Shown: positions 1,723 to 10,593 of the stretch, in pieces
Numbering within the stretch: the first letter of the stretch is position 1
Layout of the letters: each line of letters begins with the position of its first letter
Translations under genes and position numbers: made by a program
The notes under the pieces: generated by a model
Seen by the model: only the letters and a program-made list of their open reading frames with translations
What the model was told of the DNA's origin: nothing
The model's database searches: none
DNA from: Meiothermus sp.
Lineage (GTDB): Bacteria > Deinococcota > Deinococci > Deinococcales > Thermaceae
Length of the DNA: 64,000 nucleotides
Direction: 5' to 3'
Assembly (NCBI RefSeq): GCF_037443965.1
Contig: NZ_JBBINI010000014.1
Location: forward strand, 6,431-70,430

Positions 1723-2994
1723 TTAGCTTAGCAGACCGTACAGCGCGCTTAAAACCTGCTCTTCCCAGCGGGTGTAGGCCGAGTAGAGGCCCCTATGCTG
1801 GGCGGGGTCACAGCCCTGGCCCCCCAGGATGTACACCAGCGCGTGAGCGGCCTCGAGGTCGAACAGCAGGCCGCTCAGAAGGCCATAGGCATCGCCTAAG
1901 TGGCCGAACCAGGGCCGGGGGTGGCCCTGCACCGGGCAGTCCTGGCCCGGCTGGTTGGTAAAACGCCAGACCCCCAGCCCCCAGCTTAGGGCCTGGCCGT
2001 TCATCGAATCGCCGTTGGAGCCTTCGAAGATCCATTGGGCTTCCATCATCTTTTGCAAAGTTGCCGCCTTCAAGAACGGGGTCGGCCCCACCCGGCCTTG
2101 GTGCAAAAAAAGCTGGGCTATCCGGGCCAGCTCGAGGGCCGAGGCCCGCAAGCCCCCTTGCGGCGAGAAGAAGGTAGAATTGGTTCCAGGCCGGTAGGTA
2201 TTTAGATCAACGGTAATAAAGCCATTGTCGGGCCGGTCAGGGTTTGGTGTGACGGGGCCCGCAGGAACCACCCCGCGGTGGTCGTCCACCTGCGCCACCC
2301 AGGGGCCAGCCGGGTTCCATACCCCGCCGGTTTGCTTGCGGTAGAGCACCGCTAAGTTGCCCAGGGCTTCCGGGGAAAGGCGGCTAGGGTTGAAGCCACC
2401 CCCCAGGCCCAGGGGGCGCAGCACCTCGTTCTCCATGAACAGGTCGAAGCGTTGGCCCGACGCGCACTCCAGCAGGGTGCCCAGCACGCCGGTATTAAGG
2501 TTGGCATAGCAGGCGTAGCCGCCGGGCGGGTGGGCCGGGTCGAAGTGAGCGCCCCCCTCAAAAAAACGCCCCTCTGGATGAAAAAAGTCCTGCAAGGTGT
2601 AAGGGCTGGGAATGGAGTAGCGCGAGCCGTCGCGCAACGAGGAGGTATGCGAGAGCAGGTGCCGAACCCGGATGGTCGCCTGTGGAAACGCCGGGTTGCG
2701 CAGGGGAAAGCCCAGGTACTGGCTGACATCGGCCTCGAGGTCGAGCTTTCCCTGCTCCACCAGCCGCATGGCCCCCAGCGCCACTACCAGCTTGGAGATC
2801 GAGGCCACCCGGAAGCGGGTCTGATGGTTCACGGGCAGACTTTGGCTGGGGTCGGGGTCAATGTGGCGATACCCAAACGACTGGGCATAGACGACTTCCC
2901 CGCTCCGAACCACCGCTACCTGTAGGCTGGGAACGGCACAAAAGGAGTTGCCGAGCAGCGGTAGTAGGCTTTGGCTAACCTTTTCAGGCCCCAT
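1723..2994 (-). CDS. Serine hydrolase, beta-lactamase/class C-like family
   Basis: 423 aa; SxxK (ASISK), LLSHTSSL, YAN, GHLGD.YG motifs. Confidence 0.85.
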   Translation of the reverse strand: MGPEKVSQSLLPLLGNSFCAVPSLQVAVVRSGEVVYAQSFGYRHIDPDPSQSLPVNHQTRFRVASISKLVVALGAMRLVEQGKLDLEADVSQYLGFPLRNPAFPQATIRVRHLLSHTSSLRDGSRYSIPSPYTLQDFFHPEGRFFEGGAHFDPAHPPGGYACYANLNTGVLGTLLECASGQRFDLFMENEVLRPLGLGGGFNPSRLSPEALGNLAVLYRKQTGGVWNPAGPWVAQVDDHRGVVPAGPVTPNPDRPDNGFITVDLNTYRPGTNSTFFSPQGGLRASALELARIAQLFLHQGRVGPTPFLKAATLQKMMEAQWIFEGSNGDSMNGQALSWGLGVWRFTNQPGQDCPVQGHPRPWFGHLGDAYGLLSGLLFDLEAAHALVYILGGQGCDPAQHRGLYSAYTRWEEQVLSALYGLLS

Positions 2995-3069
2995 TAGCCC
3001 AGATTGTATCGGGTGCGTGCAGAGGGCTTTTCACAAAAATGTACCAAGTATATACGGTGCCCACCCAAC

Positions 3070-3098
3070 TTGACTATAACCTCCAACCCTGCCATACT
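3070..3098 (+). promoter_or_regulatory. Sigma70-type promoter of the lipoprotein cassette
   Basis: TTGACT (3070-3075), 17 nt, CATACT (3093-3098); then an 8-bp inverted repeat (3102-3109/3120-3127), GGAGGT RBS (3133-3138) and ATG at 3149. Confidence 0.65.
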
Positions 3099-3148
3099 GA
3101 ATCAGGCTATCTCGAAATGTAGCCTGAACTATGGAGGTGTATTCAGCC

Positions 3149-4902
3149 ATGCGTGTTTCTGTCGTTGGTCGTTGGTCGTTGGTCGTTGGTCGTTGGTCGT
3201 TGGTCTAGTCCTGTTGCTGGCGGCGTGCGGGACGCAGCAGGTCAAAACTGCATATGATGCACAGCCATGGGATGGTGAACCGGTGCCGCTGGCCCTGGCC
3301 CAAGCCCTGACCCTGGGGATGAAGGTTTCTGCGGGTGGTGTGAGCCTGCAGGAAGCGAAGGGCTACAAATTTGCCCGCGAAACCGTTTATGACCTCTCCC
3401 TCAAACCTTTGCATCACCTGTTGTTGGTGGGTCCAGAAACCGCCGATTTTTGGAGCACCATCGCCAACCCCAAAGACAAAAACTACGCGCTGTACGCGAT
3501 TGGTGCAACAGATAAACGTAGCTTCTTTTCGTTCATCCTGCCTGCCGCCAGCTTCAAGAGCCTGACCGAAACACGAGCCAGGGCAGGATCGTTCAAGCGC
3601 TTCTTGAGTCCAGCGGCAGGGGTGCTGTACCTGGAAGACAACACAGGACGGGTTTGGGATGTGAATACCGCTACAGAAGTGAGCGCCGAGCAGATGCAGG
3701 TGTGGCGCCAAGCCCAGCGGGTGCTGTTCGAGCAGCGGCAGAAGGATGGGATTCTGGACAAAATTAAGGAAGACTGGGACAGACTTCGCGCTGAAGCCAG
3801 CCAGAAGGGACTGGCCCAAAGCGGGGGGCTCCCCACCCTGGACGAGGTTACCCTGCCCAACGGCCACCTCGACGTGCCCAAACTGCTAAACGCACTGGAA
3901 GCCCAGAAAGCCGCCAGGGGGGTTAGCGCCAACTACACCAACGAACGGGCCTGGTGCATGGGCTGGTTCTGTGCGGGTATGGGTTATGCCAGTGTGGTGC
4001 GCAAGAACCGCTACAATGGTGACCTGGCGAATAACAACCTCTACAACCCGGATAACCCCGAAGACTGCACCACAGCCAACAAGTGCCGGATTACAAGCGA
4101 CATTCGTAACGCGGACTTGGGCAACTGGCAATATATACCTAATTTCCGCACCGTTCCAGATGGCGGTTACTGGGGTGCTTGGGATTTTGGCCTTTCTGGG
4201 TTGCCACCGCTGGAGTATGTTGGTTGTGGGCCTATGTCCATCGTGCGCGTTTTTGCATGGTATGCCACTCAGCGGAGTGCATTTGGCAGTGGTGCGAACG
4301 TGAATTTCGTAAATGCGAACGCTACGCCCCCCAGTTCAGCACGGGATGTTGCCCACCAGATGTTTGAACCGGTTCACCTAGGTGGAAATGCGTATCAACC
4401 ACGCATAGCCCGCTACACCGATACCTGGTTCTTCATGGGAGGTGGCATGACCCGCGATACCAACATAATTCCCGGTGCCAACAACTGGATTCGAGATAAT
4501 GCCAGCATAGAGGGCAAAAACTGGGAGATGCGCGGCAGCCACAAAGCTTTTGTTAACTTTGTATATGCCGGAGCTACCCTGACCATCGTTGGGCTTCCCA
4601 TCGCCTGGATAGACTTCAGTCAACATACCTGGCGCGTGCGCGATATAGCGCGTGGCAAGATTGGTCGGGACAATGAACCGGTGATTGCGCTGTATCCCAC
4701 CGGAGGAGGTGGGGGCCTCGAGGGTCACTATGCCATGTCCCAGGCTTACATTGTGCATGAGGGCTGGTTCTCTGCAAATGTGTTGCTATGGATTACCAAT
4801 ATTCAAGAAGATTGGAAGAAAGATGCTCGGGCAGGAAGTTTTGTTAACGTGACCGATATGGCCGCTTACTACAGTGGTGCGTACGGCATGTACCGGAGGT
4901 AA
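3149..4902 (+). pseudogene. Large lipoprotein with putative papain-like Cys/His peptidase domain; frameshifted in the signal peptide (possible phase-OFF state)
   Basis: RBS-ATG 3149 hits TAG at 3206; the lipobox LLLAAC and the rest of the protein are in the frame of ORF 3004..4902. Motifs YVGCGPMS and LEGHYA. Confidence 0.65.
3161..3205 (+). repeat. Heptanucleotide tandem repeat (GTCGTTG)6 plus GTC
   Basis: Six perfect copies counted directly at 3161-3202. Confidence 0.95.
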
Positions 4903-4907
4903 CCTCA

Positions 4908-5357
4908 ATGTACAAGTGGCTTCTAACTGTGCTTGCTTTGCTATTGACAGCATGTCCTGTTTTTTCCTTCCATAATGCGCCTGCCATCCCAATTGAATAC
5001 AGAGCAGCGGGGGTGTGCCAGGGGGTGGAACTAACCAATAACAATGCTGATGGCCAATGGAGCATTCATTACATGCGGCGACCTGAACCTCATAACACCA
5101 ATCTTCCATCAGGACAGGCTGTTCGTATCCCCGATCCCAACCCCTCACCTGAGTTGACCTTATATGTGATATCGAGGGAATTAATGAGGACCGGTTCTGA
5201 GTTTGAGGTCGATCTCAGCTGGCGGTGTTTGCCGGATAAGCAGCCCGAACGGGTTCGGTTTACCTACCGCTGGTCTCGTGAGGGATTGGTAATCACAGAG
5301 GATGCCAGCCTGGCTTCTGGGCTTAGGATTGTTCAAGAGAGCCGAAACGCTTGGTGA
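4908..5357 (+). CDS. Small lipoprotein A (putative inhibitor/immunity partner)
   Basis: 149 aa; lipobox LLTAC; RBS GGAGGT overlaps the upstream stop; paralog of 5754..6200. Confidence 0.8.
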   Translation: MYKWLLTVLALLLTACPVFSFHNAPAIPIEYRAAGVCQGVELTNNNADGQWSIHYMRRPEPHNTNLPSGQAVRIPDPNPSPELTLYVISRELMRTGSEFEVDLSWRCLPDKQPERVRFTYRWSREGLVITEDASLASGLRIVQESRNAW

Positions 5358-5744
5358 GTGCGGCAACAGATACCCCCAAGCCTTGGCCCGATATTCCGCA
5401 CCCTCCTCACTCCAGGTGGCAATATGCCCGCAAGATATGGATTACCGCAGCGCTGCACATTGATAGACTTCAGTCAACACACTTGGCGGGAACGCGGCAT
5501 TGTGTGTGGAAAAATTGGTCGGGACAATGAACCGGTGATTGCGATGTATGGGCTGGGCACTTTGGGCCACTTTGCTATGTCCCAGGCCTACATTGTGCAC
5601 GAGGGCTGGTTCTCGGCGAATGTGTTTCTGTGGATCAGGAGAGAAGCAGACTACAGGAGGCAAGATATGTTGCAAGGTAGTTTTGTCAACGTTACCGACA
5701 TGGGCAGTTACTATAGCGGGGCATATGGAATGTACAGGAGGTAG
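5358..5744 (+). pseudogene. Orphan copy of the C-terminal ~95 aa of the large lipoprotein
   Basis: 5462-5744 is homologous to 4608-4902 (IDFSQHTWR, KIGRDNEPVIA, AMSQAYIVHEGWFSANV, YYSGAYGMYRR); no signal peptide or catalytic Cys. Confidence 0.8.
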
Positions 5745-5753
5745 GTGGTTGCG

Positions 5754-6200
5754 ATGAAGTTTTACTGGCTGTTTCCCCTCCTGGCCGTTGCCTTAGCAGG
5801 ATGCGTGTGTTGTTACACTGTACCTAGCACCGAAGCAGAATACACATCAAAAGGGGTATGTTCGGGGGTTGAGCTGACGACCAACAACCAAAAAATAACG
5901 GGTATTCGCTACATGTACAGTACAGAGGGTAGAACAGACTCGGTACTTCTGACACCAGGCCAGCCTGTGCGCATTCCAGACCCGAACCCTGAGCCCAGGC
6001 CAACCTACTATGGTCTTGGTTTTGATGGCCCTGTGCGCAACTCAGCGGAGGTAGACCTTACCTGGAGGTGTTTGCCGGATAAATCGCCCTTAAGGGTACA
6101 GTTTATCTATTATGTCGGCCAGTTCCCGAAAAAAGAGCTGCGGATTACGGAAAACCCGGCCTCGCCCCACGGATTTGACATCGAAGTGGTGAATCTCTAG
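5754..6200 (+). CDS. Small lipoprotein B (paralog of A)
   Basis: Lipobox LAGC; shares GVC.GVELT.NN, GQ.VRIPDPNP and EVDL.WRCLPDK with 4908..5357. Confidence 0.8.
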   Translation: MKFYWLFPLLAVALAGCVCCYTVPSTEAEYTSKGVCSGVELTTNNQKITGIRYMYSTEGRTDSVLLTPGQPVRIPDPNPEPRPTYYGLGFDGPVRNSAEVDLTWRCLPDKSPLRVQFIYYVGQFPKKELRITENPASPHGFDIEVVNL

Positions 6201-6249
6201 TGTGCGAGCACCTCAGATCAAGGACACTGCAAGGAGGGGTCAGCAGGTT

Positions 6250-7278
6250 TTACCGGCTCTTGACGGCCGTCCAGACCTCGTCGTAGAGGCGGGTGTCTTT
6301 GCCCAGATCGAGCACAAACTCGAGCTTCTGCATGGTCGTGGTATCGGGATAGATGGCCGGGTTCTTGCGGTCTTCGGCGTTGATGAAAGGCAGCGCGGCC
6401 TTGTTGGGGGTGGCGTAGCGGTTGAAGTTGGAGAGCTGGGCCCCAATTTTGGCGTCCAGAATAAAGTTGATGAACTGGTGGGCGGCCTCGGGGTTGGGGG
6501 CTTTGGCCGGAATGGCCATGTTGTCCAGGAATAGGGCAGCTCCTTCCTTGGGTACCACAAAGTTCACGTTGGGGTTCTCGGCAGCGGCCTTGAGGGCATC
6601 GCCGTTGTAGACCACCGCGTAGGTGGCTGTGCCGGCGACCAGGCGGTTCTTGGCCCCCACGCCGCCTTCAAAGCCCAGGAAGCGGGGGTTTTTCTTGGCA
6701 TTCAGAAGCACCTGGCCGGCGGCCCGCACCTCGGCGGGGTTCCGGGTGTTGATGGACTTGCCCTGGAAGCGCAGCGCCGCCCCCAGCATCTCGCGGATGG
6801 AGTCCATCAGCACGAAGGGCTTATCGGCCCCGGGCCCCAGAATCACGCTCCAACTGGTGGGGGTGGGGACGCGGTCTTTGCGGTACATGATGCCCGACAT
6901 GCCCCACTGGTAGGCCGCGCTGTAGCGGTTGCCGGGGTCGAAGGGCGGGTTGGCAAACTTGGGGTCGAGGTTTTTCAGGTTGGGGATTTTGCTTTTGTTA
7001 AGGGGCTGGATTAGCTTGAGCTGGATCAGGGTGGGGATGATGTAGTCGCCCGGTACGATGACGTCGTACTGCGAGACCCCCCCGGCCTGGAGCTTGGCCA
7101 GCATGTCCTCATTGGATTCGTAGAGGTCAATGCGTACCCGCAGGTTGAACTTTTGCTCGAAGGCTTTGATGATGGCCGGGTCCATGTACTCCGACCAGAT
7201 AAAAAGCCGCATTTCGCGTGGCTGAGCAAACGCCAGTGACAAAGCCAGCAGGGTCAATAGGGCCACAAAACCTTTCAT
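6250..7278 (-). CDS. potD: Spermidine/putrescine ABC transporter substrate-binding protein
   Basis: Signal peptide; WSEY, YESNEDM, YDVIVPGDY, YQWG, PKEG..LFLDNMAIP. Confidence 0.9.
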   Translation of the reverse strand: MKGFVALLTLLALSLAFAQPREMRLFIWSEYMDPAIIKAFEQKFNLRVRIDLYESNEDMLAKLQAGGVSQYDVIVPGDYIIPTLIQLKLIQPLNKSKIPNLKNLDPKFANPPFDPGNRYSAAYQWGMSGIMYRKDRVPTPTSWSVILGPGADKPFVLMDSIREMLGAALRFQGKSINTRNPAEVRAAGQVLLNAKKNPRFLGFEGGVGAKNRLVAGTATYAVVYNGDALKAAAENPNVNFVVPKEGAALFLDNMAIPAKAPNPEAAHQFINFILDAKIGAQLSNFNRYATPNKAALPFINAEDRKNPAIYPDTTTMQKLEFVLDLGKDTRLYDEVWTAVKSR

Positions 7279-7300
7279 CAGGGGTTCCTCCTTATACCAA

Positions 7301-7342
7301 CTCTACGCGTGAGTGACGCATATGGCATCACTCACTTGCCGC
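7301..7342. repeat. 42-bp REP-like hairpin repeat, copy 1
   Basis: 36/42 identical to 45123-45164; GTGAGTG..GC stem. Confidence 0.75.
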
Positions 7343-7588
7343 TTAGGTTCCGGCTGTGCTAGTGCTTCGCACCAGGATCGCGTAAGCGACTTTGCCTGGG
7401 CGCATCCGAGGGTCTCTTCCATAGCTTTTCGGGTCAGTCATGCGCAGAACCTGTGCTACATTTTACTGCAGTCTATCGGTGTGGGTTGAAGTAATTATTA
7501 GCGAACACTACCGATTGGCCGCGTCCTGGCAGGCCCTGTGTGGGATGGTTCCCTCAGGTGGAGCAAGCTCGCAGATCAAAAAAAGCCA

Positions 7589-8374
7589 TCAGCGACGGGT
7601 CAAACGTTCGGAGGTCAGTACCAGCAAAACGGTCGCCAGAAAGATCAGGGTCGAGAGGGCGTGAATTTCCGGCGTGACCCCCCGCCGCACCGAGGCGTAG
7701 ATGAGCAAGGGCAGGGTTTGGGAGGTAGGGCCAGCGGTGAAAAAGCTAATCACGAAGTCGTCCAGCGAAAGCGTGAAGGCCAGCATGGCCCCGGCCACAA
7801 TACCTGGGGTCAACAGGGGCAGCAGTACCCGGCGTACATAGTAGCCATAGCTGGCATAGAGGTCGCGGGCAGCCTCGTCAAGGTCGTGCCCCAGGCTCTT
7901 GAGGCGGCTTCGCACCGTGAGGGCCACAAAGGCCACCTGGAAGGTGACGTGTCCCAGAACCATGGTGGTCATGCCCAGCTCGAAAATGCTCGAGAGGGTT
8001 CGCAAGGCTCCAAAGGCGACCACCAGCGCCACAGCCAGGATGATGTCGGGCGTAACCACCGGAAGATAGAGAATATTCTCCAGAAAACCCGAGCTGCGGC
8101 GAGGCCAGGGATAGCGCTCCAGTGCAATGGCCAATAGGGTGCCCAATACGGTGGCAATGAGGGTGGAGACCACCGCCAAGAACAAGGTGTTGCGGGCGGC
8201 CTCGAGGATATCGGGGTTGTTCAGGAGCCGCACATACCAATCCCAGGTGAAGCCGCTCCACTGCATCCCGTAGCGGGTTTTGTTGAAGGACAGAACGGCC
8301 ACTGCCAACATGGGCAGATACAAGAATGCCAGGGTAGCCAGAGCAGTGAGGCTGATCCAGGGGTTCAGGCGCAC
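7589..8374 (-). CDS. potC: Polyamine ABC transporter permease PotC
   Basis: VLSFN, LGHVTF, EAARDL, FTLSLDDF; start moved to GTG 8374, which has a GGAGG RBS. Confidence 0.88.
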   Translation of the reverse strand: MRLNPWISLTALATLAFLYLPMLAVAVLSFNKTRYGMQWSGFTWDWYVRLLNNPDILEAARNTLFLAVVSTLIATVLGTLLAIALERYPWPRRSSGFLENILYLPVVTPDIILAVALVVAFGALRTLSSIFELGMTTMVLGHVTFQVAFVALTVRSRLKSLGHDLDEAARDLYASYGYYVRRVLLPLLTPGIVAGAMLAFTLSLDDFVISFFTAGPTSQTLPLLIYASVRRGVTPEIHALSTLIFLATVLLVLTSERLTRR

Positions 8375-9494: not shown

Positions 9495-10593
9495 CCAGCA
9501 CCACCAAGGAATCTACAGGTAGCTCGGCCCAGAGTTCCTGCCCGGCCTGCAGGGTGGGGTGGGGGGTGGTGCGCACCCGGAGTTCGCAGGGCTCGAGCCA
9601 GACCTCCTGATAAGCCCCGCGATAGACCGCCTCGCGCACCCGCACCCGGAGGGCGTTCTGCCGGGGTTCTACCTCGGATAGGCGCACCCGCTCGGGCCGA
9701 ATGGCCACATAGCCCTCGTCCCAGGGGGGGGTCTGGCTCAGGGCCAGCTTGCCGTAGGGGGTGTCGAGGCCCAGGGGCAGCCTTTGGCCCCGAATCAGGT
9801 TGGCCGCACCCAAAAACTCGGCGGCGTAGCGGGTGCGGGGCCGCTCGTAGACCTCGTCCGGGGTACCGACCTGCTCGAGGTGGCCCATCCGCATCAGGGC
9901 GATGCGATCCGAGACCGCCATGGCCTCGTCCTGGTCGTGGGTGACCAGGATAAAGGTCAGGCCCAACTGCTGCTGGAGCCGCCGGAGCTGTACCTGTACC
10001 TCGGCCCTGAGCTTGGCGTCGAGGGCGCTCATGGGCTCGTCCAGCAAGAGCACCTGGGGCTCGTTGACCAGGGCCCGGGCCAGGGCCACCCGTTGCTTCT
10101 GGCCGCCCGAAAGCTGGTGGGGCAGCCGCTCGGCAAAGCGCTCGAGCTGCAACATCTCCAGGCCGTACCTCACCCGTCGCTCCACCTCGGCCTGGTTCAT
10201 GCGGCGGCTTTTGAGGCCAAAGGCGATGTTTTCCCGCACCGTAAGGTGTGGAAACAGGGCGTAGCTCTGAAACACCGTATTGACCGGGCGGCGGTTGGCA
10301 GGGAGGGGTGTAAGGTCTTGGCCCATCAGCACCACCCGGCCCTCGCTGGGCACCTCGAGGCCGGCAATAATCCGCAGCAGGGTGGTTTTGCCGCAGCCCG
10401 AGGGCCCCAAAAGGGTGAAGAACTGGCCCGCAGGCACCTCGAGGCTCACCCCGCCCAACGCGGTAAAATCGCCGAATTTTTTGACCACGTTCTGTATGGA
10501 GAGGGACTCCCCTGTGGCCGGAGGCCGTATGGCGGCGGTCATGGTTGGCGAACAGATTACCAGAGGGGGCCGGGGGTTGACCAGGGTGGCCAT
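9487..10593 (-). CDS. potA: Polyamine ABC transporter ATP-binding protein (start may be 10542)
   Basis: GPSGCGKT, LSGGQKQRVALARAL, LLLDEP, C-terminal TOBE-like region. Confidence 0.88.
   Translation of the reverse strand: MATLVNPRPPLVICSPTMTAAIRPPATGESLSIQNVVKKFGDFTALGGVSLEVPAGQFFTLLGPSGCGKTTLLRIIAGLEVPSEGRVVLMGQDLTPLPANRRPVNTVFQSYALFPHLTVRENIAFGLKSRRMNQAEVERRVRYGLEMLQLERFAERLPHQLSGGQKQRVALARALVNEPQVLLLDEPMSALDAKLRAEVQVQLRRLQQQLGLTFILVTHDQDEAMAVSDRIALMRMGHLEQVGTPDEVYERPRTRYAAEFLGAANLIRGQRLPLGLDTPYGKLALSQTPPWDEGYVAIRPERVRLSEVEPRQNALRVRVREAVYRGAYQEVWLEPCELRVRTTPHPTLQAGQELWAELPVDSLVVLDE

Follow-up and report, generated by a model that had tools for sequence, protein, structure and literature searches.

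Orphan C-terminal coding fragments that travel with an immunity gene are already well known for Rhs proteins, contact-dependent inhibition (CDI), MafB, and the effectors of type VI secretion systems (T6SS). Descriptions include the orphan cdiA-CT/cdiI modules of CDI loci (Poole et al. 2011, PMC3150448), C-terminal displacement in Rhs (Jackson et al. 2009, cited in PMC5361080), sequential displacement of T6SS effector-immunity modules in Vibrio cholerae (Kirchberger et al. 2017, PMC5361080), and the alternative C-terminal cassettes of Neisseria MafB/MafI (Zhang et al. 2012, PMC3482391). Lipoprotein toxins are represented by SitA/SitI of Myxococcus, which are moved by outer-membrane exchange (Vassallo et al. 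2017, PMC5562445), and a 2012 survey of polymorphic toxin systems contained only one lipoprotein immunity family. We found no description of such loci for the thermophilic phylum Deinococcota, and Meiothermus was unmentioned in the polymorphic-toxin literature searched. Here, we analyzed a locus near the start of a 64,000-nucleotide (nt) stretch of Meiothermus sp. DNA (assembly GCF_037443965.1, contig NZ_JBBINI010000014.1, positions 6,431 to 70,430), referred to throughout as the window. The locus comprises a large lipoprotein gene, designated BIG, a small lipoprotein gene (lipoA), an orphan copy of the BIG 3' end, and a second small lipoprotein gene (lipoB). It represents a variant, in a Deinococcota family without annotation, of the polymorphic effector/immunity theme, and we consider it probable that it is a protease/inhibitor locus, polymorphic and effector/immunity-like, that diversifies by C-terminal displacement.

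Tail-partner cassettes and their exchange between strains

The forward strand, on which all features described here lie unless stated otherwise, shows four open reading frames (ORFs) in the region: BIG, ending at 4902, lipoA, an ORF at 5358 to 5744, and lipoB. BIG (3149 to 4902) has an ATG at 3149 preceded by a GGAGGTG ribosome-binding site; the ORF list, the sequence, and a frame analysis place its body frame at 3208 to 4902, encoding 564 amino acids (aa) with the lipobox LLLAAC (Cys codon 3226 to 3228). Its 3' end, 4608 to 4902, recurs without an N-terminus at 5458/5462 to 5744. A repeat search paired 4608 to 4695 with 5462 to 5549 (88 nt, 85%) and 4722 to 4793 with 5564 to 5635 (72 nt, 88%), and identical blocks of 18 nt and 30 nt begin at 4608/5462 and 4660/5514, respectively. 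In the contig comparison, the same 30-nt block also makes up the 30 letters compatible with both sides of a joint. As protein, the two tails are 69% identical over 105 aa (E = 2e-44), the last 93 codons of the orphan ORF being a copy of the last 97 codons of BIG, and they differ in two patches, PTGGGGGLEG versus GLGTLG and TNIQEDWKKDARA versus RREADYRRQDMLQ. The expressed tail, CT-A (residues 468 to 564; 4608 to 4902), corresponds to the beta-sheet half of a predicted papain-like domain. The orphan tail, dCT-B (5458 to 5744), consists of 93 in-frame codons without a stop and retains a His codon (5568 to 5570) and both type-B variable patches. Each tail is followed by a lipoprotein gene. The partner of CT-A, lipoA (4908 to 5357), encodes 149 aa with the lipobox LLTAC (Cys codon 4953 to 4955); lipoB (5754 to 6200), an intact orphan partner gene served by the AGGAGG at 5736 to 5741 within dCT-B, encodes 148 aa with the lipobox LAGC (Cys codon 5802 to 5804). 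The two lipoproteins are 41% identical (E = 2e-30). The original prediction, made by a model from the letters of the window and a list of its ORFs, had described the repeat with its exact blocks, the divergent patches, a diverged lipoprotein of its own behind each copy, and the missing N-terminus of the second copy. The repeat is correctly placed, the protein alignment confirmed the patches, both lipoproteins have lipoboxes, and the second copy is without an N-terminus because its homology to any full-length gene starts only at 5458 to 5462.

BIG, the orphan fragment, and all lipoprotein types were mapped onto 26 related loci (L-numbers; X-numbers denote sequencing runs and P-numbers family proteins). 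At the amino acid level, identity of the orphan tail is 87% to the expressed tail of L007, 85% to that of L008, and 83% to that of L002, versus 70% to the tail of its own cassette A, while lipoB is 81% identical to the lipoprotein behind the expressed type-B gene in L007, L008, and L024 and 98% identical to its L016 counterpart. Both orphan parts thus resemble the expressed cassettes of other strains more than their neighbors in cassette A, and they do not represent a local duplicate. Orphan cassettes that match expressed cassettes elsewhere, as expected of a polymorphic locus, are therefore present here.

The order of the two cassettes is reversed in L024, a 6.5-kb Logan contig in which BIG with a type-B tail is followed by a lipoB-type gene, ∼60 nt, a truncated type-A tail, lipoA, and the right-flank gene potD. 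The same reversed structure was found in run X7. The downstream type-A tail of L024 retains 111 codons (94% aa identity), its lipoA is 98% identical in amino acid sequence to that of the window, and its first 2244 nt are 98.4 to 98.7% identical to L007 and L008. In these two loci and in L002, cassette B is expressed and no cassette-A remnant was detected 3' of it. Comparison with L024 and with contigs from X5, X6, and X9 delimits cassette A as a transferable unit at 4579 to 5375, made up of the last ∼300 nt of BIG, lipoA, and 18 nt beyond. It is 95.4% identical to L024 2243 to 3039, where it is located behind lipoB. In the X5, X6, and X9 contigs, cassette A stands alone (97% identical to the window over 4627 to 5375) and reaches potD via 108 nt, and the gene upstream of it is 91% identical to that of the window.

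Other loci show replacement and accumulation. L016 is 97 to 100% identical to the window over 3208 to 4060 and 98% identical over 5574 to 6600, yet has a different first cassette, with a 167-aa lipoprotein only ∼40% identical to lipoA. Its type-B remnant begins later and comprises 55 codons, such that the orphan breakpoint differs from that in the window. In L021 to L023 (L021 is assembly GCA_037440185.1), BIG is cut to 88 codons, the first 83 post-lipobox codons being fused to a short 3' remnant ending in GMFRR. Four lipoprotein genes of three types are nevertheless kept there (L021 4519 to 7173), each behind a tail remnant of 13 to 53 codons; the copy nearest lipoB has a gene call of just 103 aa and perhaps a premature stop. 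Remnants of 19 to 86 codons stand ahead of extra lipoprotein genes in L001, L005, L012, L015, and L020, and overall, at least seven loci besides the window have orphan remnants, of 13 to 111 codons, in front of lipoprotein genes. Cassettes have been exchanged between strains over evolutionary time. The tail and its partner had been proposed to form a swappable module, with a comparison of cassette number and order across strains as the check and a fixed arrangement with a neutral tandem duplicate as the outcome that would speak against it. The comparison found reversed, single, and replaced cassettes; order, number, and identity vary among strains, as the proposal would have it, and the fragment is not a local duplicate.

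Local tandem duplication of the BIG 3' end and lipoprotein gene, with a neutrally decaying second copy, was rejected as very unlikely on the basis of the cross-strain counterparts, the reversed order, and the shifted breakpoints. The copies are indeed adjacent, direct, and in the same order. The orphan also carries changes at three conserved 5' positions (V>E, D>G, and R>C, in the stretch WRVRDI(A/V)RGKIG), and the 9 synonymous and 10 nonsynonymous orphan-only changes suggest some relaxation. However, the closest relatives of both orphan parts are in other strains (87% and 81%, versus 70% and 41% for the neighbors), strains with a single cassette exist, L024 and X7 show the opposite order, and breakpoints differ between near-identical strains. 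The 93-codon frame is intact, and the ratio of nonsynonymous to synonymous divergence (dN/dS) of dCT-B versus its expressed counterparts is 0.09 to 0.13, which is similar to the 0.04 to 0.08 for pairs of expressed genes. We read the orphan as a fairly young remnant under partly relaxed constraint. Its partner, lipoB, with a dN/dS of 0.24 to 0.30 and an intact lipobox, looks functional; lipoA has a dN/dS of 0.15, and its 90% cluster holds 10 members. Synonymous divergence (dS) between the window and the L024/L007 lineage is 0.06 for lipoA, 0.12 for potB, 0.27 for potD, 0.46 for the BIG N-terminus, 0.47 for lipoB, and 0.66 for the type-B tail. By these values, the locus is a recombination mosaic in which cassette A was recently shared between lineages.

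The window comes from a metagenome-assembled genome, and the assembly graph breaks at the 7-nt repeat described below, both of which would favor an artifact in which two strain alleles were stitched in tandem. We rejected such a chimera as extremely improbable. One Logan contig from the same run spans 3176 to 6500 at uniform depth with no differences. Homology to X5, X7, and L024 stops at 5375 and that to type-B genes begins at 5458, and the 82-nt junction filler between cassette A and the orphan (5376 to 5457) is unique sequence, with no match among the 26 related loci. Tandem cassettes with their own junctions also occur in independent assemblies from other samples and pipelines (L012, L015, L016, and L021 to L024).

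Under C-terminal displacement, an incoming cassette consisting of the last ∼100 protease codons and the partner gene would recombine into the expressed gene at one of several conserved blocks. The former tail would be displaced downstream as a truncated, promoter-less remnant, with its lipoprotein gene intact. The segment at 5458 to 6200 would then be the displaced type-B cassette, and 4579 to 5375 the type-A cassette now in the expression site. Entry presumably combines one crossover in a conserved block with one illegitimate or microhomology junction; at the left junction of L024, donor and recipient share only a few bases, around GCT. The remnant may persist because it carries the Shine-Dalgarno sequence of the lipoprotein gene in its last codons (GMYRR-stop) and because it supplies homology for further exchange (30 and 18 nt exact; 85 to 88% over 72 to 88 nt). 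A deletion between the 30-nt blocks would put the type-B patches and lipoB on the expressed gene, with loss of lipoA.

Switching within one clone may also occur. A programmed, high-frequency form, in which the silent cassette is loaded often, as in pilE/pilS or vlsE, and is coupled to the 7-nt repeat, seems to us improbable. The exact 30- and 18-nt homology between expressed and silent copies and the repeat number, which toggles between 99%-identical strains, fit such a mechanism. So does one X2 contig that switches from an A'-type tail to patch 2 of type B precisely at the conserved block following 4793; in the L016 background, main gene and orphan share no exact match longer than 20 nt, and therefore an assembly chimera at k = 31 is unlikely for this joint. 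However, the single silent copy is truncated, the shared blocks are short, the immediate locus (3000 to 6250) has no evident recombinase gene, and deletion-type loading would be irreversible and cost lipoA. Moreover, part of the variable region lies outside the cassette, and the contigs from the window's own sample showed no variant joint.

Several rearranged copies of BIG were encountered. In L014, a BIG copy has an internal deletion that fuses the leader to approximately residue 442 (90 to 530, 498 to 1690). Its tail is broken after GTFVN by ∼1.2 kb of GC-rich DNA, and the last 19 codons resume at 1690; minus-strand ORFs of the insert are transposase-like by eye, no search having been made. 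In L006 (2822 to 4372; P0011), ∼105 residues of the N-terminus of an ABC-transporter ATPase are fused to BIG from approximately residue 163, which could be a real rearrangement or a metagenome chimera. P0013 (311 aa) is a second, internally deleted copy, with ∼100 N-terminal and ∼210 C-terminal residues of type B, that shares a 3.27-Mb contig with P0004/L004, a genome whose main locus is type A2.

A predicted protease and its partner lipoproteins

BIG and the two lipoproteins had no Pfam, NCBIfam, PADLOC, or PHROGs match (Pfam and NCBIfam at E ≤ 1 for BIG), the orphan ORF had no Pfam or NCBIfam match, and ten distant BIG relatives had no Pfam match at E ≤ 0.1. A Protein Data Bank (PDB) sequence search with a lipoprotein profile likewise gave only chance matches, none relevant. 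The close family of BIG consists of 17 proteins, among which Meiothermus is the sole organism name, and a genomic locus was also found in Thermus arciformis. A profile search of a word-indexed protein database missed the distant paralogs; an exhaustive profile search, used for the wider family, yielded 68 representatives of 500 to 620 aa, most of the full-length members examined having a lipobox. The only named distant relative is from Oceanithermus profundus. In a 28-member alignment, in which some members are ∼20% identical to the query, just Q308, G339, C340, G423, and H507 are invariant.

An AlphaFold2 (AF2) model built with 11 close homologs was unusable, with a predicted local distance difference test (pLDDT) score of 51. 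Addition of distant representatives, for a total of 28 sequences, gave a model with a pLDDT of 86 and a predicted template modeling score (pTM) of 0.90. Cys340 opens a helix (340 to 354), and His507 lies on a strand (506 to 511) of a C-terminal antiparallel sheet, which in the model is the arrangement of the papain fold. A conserved Cys at a helix N-terminus and a conserved His on a beta-strand of the second lobe, as in clan CA, were thus found in the model and the 28 sequences. With Foldseek, 7 of the 10 top matches were clan CA cysteine proteases, namely, SpeB as inhibitor complex and zymogen, TDE0362, IdeS, falcipain-2, and staphopain in complex with staphostatin; SpvD appeared further down the list. 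From geometry and conservation, and without a significant database match, BIG is a probable papain-like cysteine protease.

The exchanged piece can be placed on this model. Residues 468 to 564 take in the helix at 467 to 487 and every strand of the sheet lobe, including His507, whose codon (4726 to 4728) is inside CT-A. Variable patch 1 (4696 to 4722; residues 497 to 505) forms the loop leading into His507, variable patch 2 (4795 to 4833; residues 530 to 542) forms the next long loop, with low pLDDT, and the conserved blocks between patches correspond to strands of the sheet lobe. As modeled, the exchanged piece is the His-bearing subdomain of a single catalytic domain rather than a separate toxin domain. 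Hypervariable region 1 (HV1; 4061 to 4400) surrounds the Cys340 codon (4225 to 4227) and lies outside the duplicated cassette. Nucleotide identity between the window and L016, nearly complete over 3208 to 4060, is 64 to 84% in HV1, 71% in patch 1, 81% in patch 2, and 76% in the tail, and dS is 1.21 for HV1, 0.04 for the N-terminus, and 0.00 for lipoB. This comparison shows the conserved N-terminal and variable C-terminal parts that characterize polymorphic toxin loci.

All 42 motif-matched tail-lipoprotein junctions (42/42) end in G-M/L/I-Y/F-R/Q/K-R/K-stop, typically GGCATGTACCGGAGGTAG, and the GGAGG or AGGAGG of this terminal motif sits 4 to 20 nt 5' of the lipoprotein start codon. In the window, the last codons of CT-A (GGAGG at 4895 to 4899) are the ribosome-binding site of lipoA, and a GMYRR-stop motif with GGAGG precedes every lipoprotein gene examined. 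The last protease codons thus also provide the ribosome-binding site of the partner, so that even a minimal viable cassette has to contain them. The partner gene is directly 3' of the variable end, a lipoprotein gene lying within 4 to 20 nt behind every tail or remnant, and travels with it, as the movement of cassette A as a whole illustrates. Distances between tails and between lipoproteins are correlated (Mantel r = 0.35, p = 0.03), and since this correlation is modest, we do not claim a strict one-to-one specificity. The pairing is kept in distant members, a paralog with its lipoprotein in L001 and P0045 with two tandem lipoproteins.

A second partner family (184 to 187 aa), unrelated to lipoA and lipoB, also keeps the terminal motif. 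Members of this family follow the paralogous protease of L001 (3242 to 5521) and occupy the distal end of several arrays (L001 8822 to 9376; L011, L012, and L015). In L004, a gene of this type (9629 to 10192) is directly 3' of an intact BIG, apparently via a deletion between near-identical signal-peptide starts. In L025 (5001 to 8163), a distant member from a low-GC organism (25% identical) is followed by two paralogous lipoproteins in tandem, 204 and 208 aa long, that are not separated by a tail remnant, and thus partner duplication also occurs far from Meiothermus. Near the divergent member P0012, L005 holds a free-standing C-terminal Peptidase_C39 fragment and a set of SdpA/HTTM/bPH_5 genes (3138 to 3545, 5770 to 7753). 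Elements of these kinds are often tied to bacteriocin-type antagonism.

We infer that BIG is a lipoprotein anchored in the membrane and that its C-terminal half is a cysteine protease of the papain type with Cys340 and His507 as its catalytic pair. The downstream small lipoprotein most likely binds and blocks the protease, in the manner of an inhibitor or immunity protein, and would contact the His-side loops. The pair may act in between-strain conflict, where kept orphans would protect against the alleles of neighbors. It is also conceivable that no antagonism is involved. The locus might then encode either a protease of the surface or periplasm along with an inhibitor that protects the producer, or a lipoprotein complex that serves as a phage receptor, with diversity driven by phages or the environment, and the orphans would be recombination by-products. 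Several observations speak for it: the two lipoproteins belong to the envelope of the producer itself, the domain searches turned up no delivery domain, phage receptors and surface antigens typically show phase-variable, patchy hypervariability as well, and the fold matches include staphopain bound to staphostatin. We nevertheless regard this explanation as unlikely, since cassettes move horizontally as units of tail plus partner and intact partner genes are kept as arrays, even in L021, where the protease gene is destroyed. Arrays of this type count against a housekeeping inhibitor because the pattern is characteristic of immunity-gene collections.

Leader repeat and surroundings of the locus

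Between the ATG at 3149 and the lipobox, the signal-peptide coding region of BIG contains a tandem repeat, (GTCGTTG) ×6.4 at 3161 to 3205, detected by Tandem Repeats Finder with 100% matches. All three frames of the repeat encode cyclic permutations of one peptide (VVGRWSL), and hence only the downstream frame matters. The number of heptamer units across loci ranges from 2.4 to 6.4. With 6.4 units, the ATG of the window is out of frame with the BIG body (phase OFF). L007 (5944 to 5990) has 3.6 units and is in frame, while L008 (5951 to 5990), otherwise ∼99% identical, has 2.6 units and is out of frame. The ATG is also in frame in L009 and out of frame in L001, L002, L004, L010, L018, and L021. 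The unit is thus not a multiple of three, its copy number varies between near-identical genomes, and the frame changes with it, as in simple sequence repeat contingency loci. We consider the heptamer repeat a candidate slipped-strand ON/OFF switch, supported at the population level. The proposal that repeat and cassettes together constitute a two-layer variation system holds in part, in that a repeat layer is seen at the population level, with L007 and L008 one unit apart, and a cassette layer is seen as exchange between strains.

A similar leader, with related upstream sequence, a heptamer repeat giving RWSLV(V/A)G, and a lipobox, precedes other, unrelated lipoprotein genes. These include a 242-aa lipoprotein (L004 6177 to 6905), the 25%-identical paralog of L001 (3242 to 4948), and a second gene in the window's organism, recognized by comparing a contig of run X1 with window positions 3179 to 3236. 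This distribution suggests a shared phase-variable leader cassette.

The locus is a low-GC island, with 51 to 56% GC in window positions 3001 to 6500 versus 63 to 67% in the flanks, which carry aminotransferase, beta-lactamase-fold, and ABC-transporter genes. The conserved right flank is formed by potD (6250 to 7278, reverse strand), encoding a PotD-like spermidine/putrescine-type ABC substrate-binding protein; its syntenic genes in L004, L016, L021, and L024 have Pfam SBP_bac_1/8/11 matches. An Rfam scan of 2900 to 6500 found nothing. Promoter and terminator scans gave counts near the shuffled expectation, with a weak promoter-like site at 3070 to 3098. They showed no convincing terminator between lipoA and the orphan, and therefore read-through transcription from lipoA into the orphan and lipoB is plausible. 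Immediately 3' of the lipoA stop codon, a GTG at 5358 opens a 128-aa ORF through the orphan tail, which could in principle be translated.

A number of observations weigh against a protease/inhibitor locus diversified by displacement. On the protease side, the PDB sequence search with the BIG profile returned chance matches only, with no solved relative, and the Foldseek scores are weak (best SpeB, E = 0.011, probability 0.54, TM ∼0.3; TM ∼0.2 to 0.4 across the best matches) for a query that was a full-length multidomain model. On the partner side, covariation is imperfect: L016 and the window share 88% identity in the tail but only 44% in the lipoprotein, L004 has an intact BIG followed by only a second-family lipoprotein, and the L021 orphan ahead of lipoA bears type-B patch 2. 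The ATG is out of frame in 8 of the 10 loci with a readable ATG, constraint on the orphan tail appears somewhat relaxed, no delivery apparatus or trafficking domain is evident, and no recombinant joint was present in the window's own sample, for which contigs, which drop rare variants, were the material. We still favor C-terminal displacement of a protease/inhibitor pair as the best account of the locus. A more specific possibility, which we advance tentatively and rate below even chances, is an antagonism or kin-discrimination system of the Thermales. It would comprise a lipid-anchored, papain-like protease toxin delivered to neighbors by envelope contact or vesicles, allele-specific lipoprotein immunity that blocks it, and two stacked generators of diversity. 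If so, the leader repeat would set the ON/OFF state, exchange of the His-bearing half together with the immunity gene would set specificity, and a previously undescribed system would span Meiothermus, Thermus, and Oceanithermus.

Comparison with described polymorphic systems

The analysis provides a testable annotation for ∼70 representative "hypothetical" proteins and their partner lipoproteins. The half-domain exchange would constitute a natural experiment on protease/inhibitor specificity encoded in two short loops, and the presence of a coding repeat and cassettes in one gene would make a convenient model for combined phase variation and cassette exchange.

The original prediction had drawn an analogy to Rhs, CDI, and MafB loci. 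The process of displacement is alike, but membership in these families was rejected because none of their defining domains is present: searches of Pfam and NCBIfam found no two-partner-secretion (TPS)/filamentous hemagglutinin (FHA) region with a VENN motif, no RHS/YD repeats with PxxxxDPxGL, and no MafB-N domain. As in CDI orphan modules, a start-less 3' gene fragment with an intact partner gene lies 3' of the full gene and keeps a stretch in common with it. The modules match those expressed in other strains, their position shifts between strains, and a deletion could load the orphan on the main gene, with loss of the immunity gene that comes first. Unlike CDI loci, the Meiothermus locus has no TPS/FHA region or VENN motif, both partners are lipoproteins, and the phylum is Deinococcota. 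The exchanged piece is also different, being in the model the His-bearing half of a conserved catalytic domain, with two variable patches, rather than an unrelated toxin domain.

Rhs and T6SS displacement offers the closest parallel in process. There, too, a new module replaces the expressed 3' end, and the old remnant and its immunity gene shift downstream, building arrays that are heterogeneous and horizontally acquired rather than duplicated; of the two junctions, one falls within shared homology and one is illegitimate. However, the Meiothermus locus lacks RHS/YD repeats, PAAR, VgrG, and a T6SS context, its cassettes are small (∼0.8 kb), and its remnant always retains the last codons, which contain the ribosome-binding site for the partner gene.

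With regard to biochemistry, the nearest counterparts are the staphopain-staphostatin pairs (PDB 1pxv and 1y4h) and SpeB-Spi, in which a protease gene is directly followed, in an operon, by a gene for a small, specific inhibitor. The likeness consists of a papain-like cysteine protease gene, here a predicted one, with an adjacent small gene, and these proteases are among the best fold matches. In contrast to the Meiothermus locus, neither cassette polymorphism nor orphans are known for such pairs, and their inhibitors are cytoplasmic rather than lipoproteins. SitA and SitI, a polymorphic toxin with an N-terminal lipobox and the product of an adjacent immunity gene, resemble the proposed pair of the locus; in Myxococcus, the C-termini of SitA are nucleases active in the cytoplasm, SitI is cytoplasmic, and delivery requires TraA/TraB.

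Neisseria provides counterparts for both layers of variation. There, silent 3' cassettes that include immunity genes stand behind the expressed gene, much as the orphan tail and lipoB do here, and a leader repeat with a unit that is not a multiple of three, the CTCTT repeat in the signal-peptide region of opa, sets an ON/OFF state, as the heptamer would in BIG. The Meiothermus locus differs in the lack of a MafB-N domain, and the repeat and the cassettes, which belong to separate gene families in Neisseria, reside here in one gene. What distinguishes the locus from the described systems is the combination of two lipoprotein partners, a half-domain exchange unit, a ribosome-binding site inside the remnant, and a frame-shifting repeat in the same gene.

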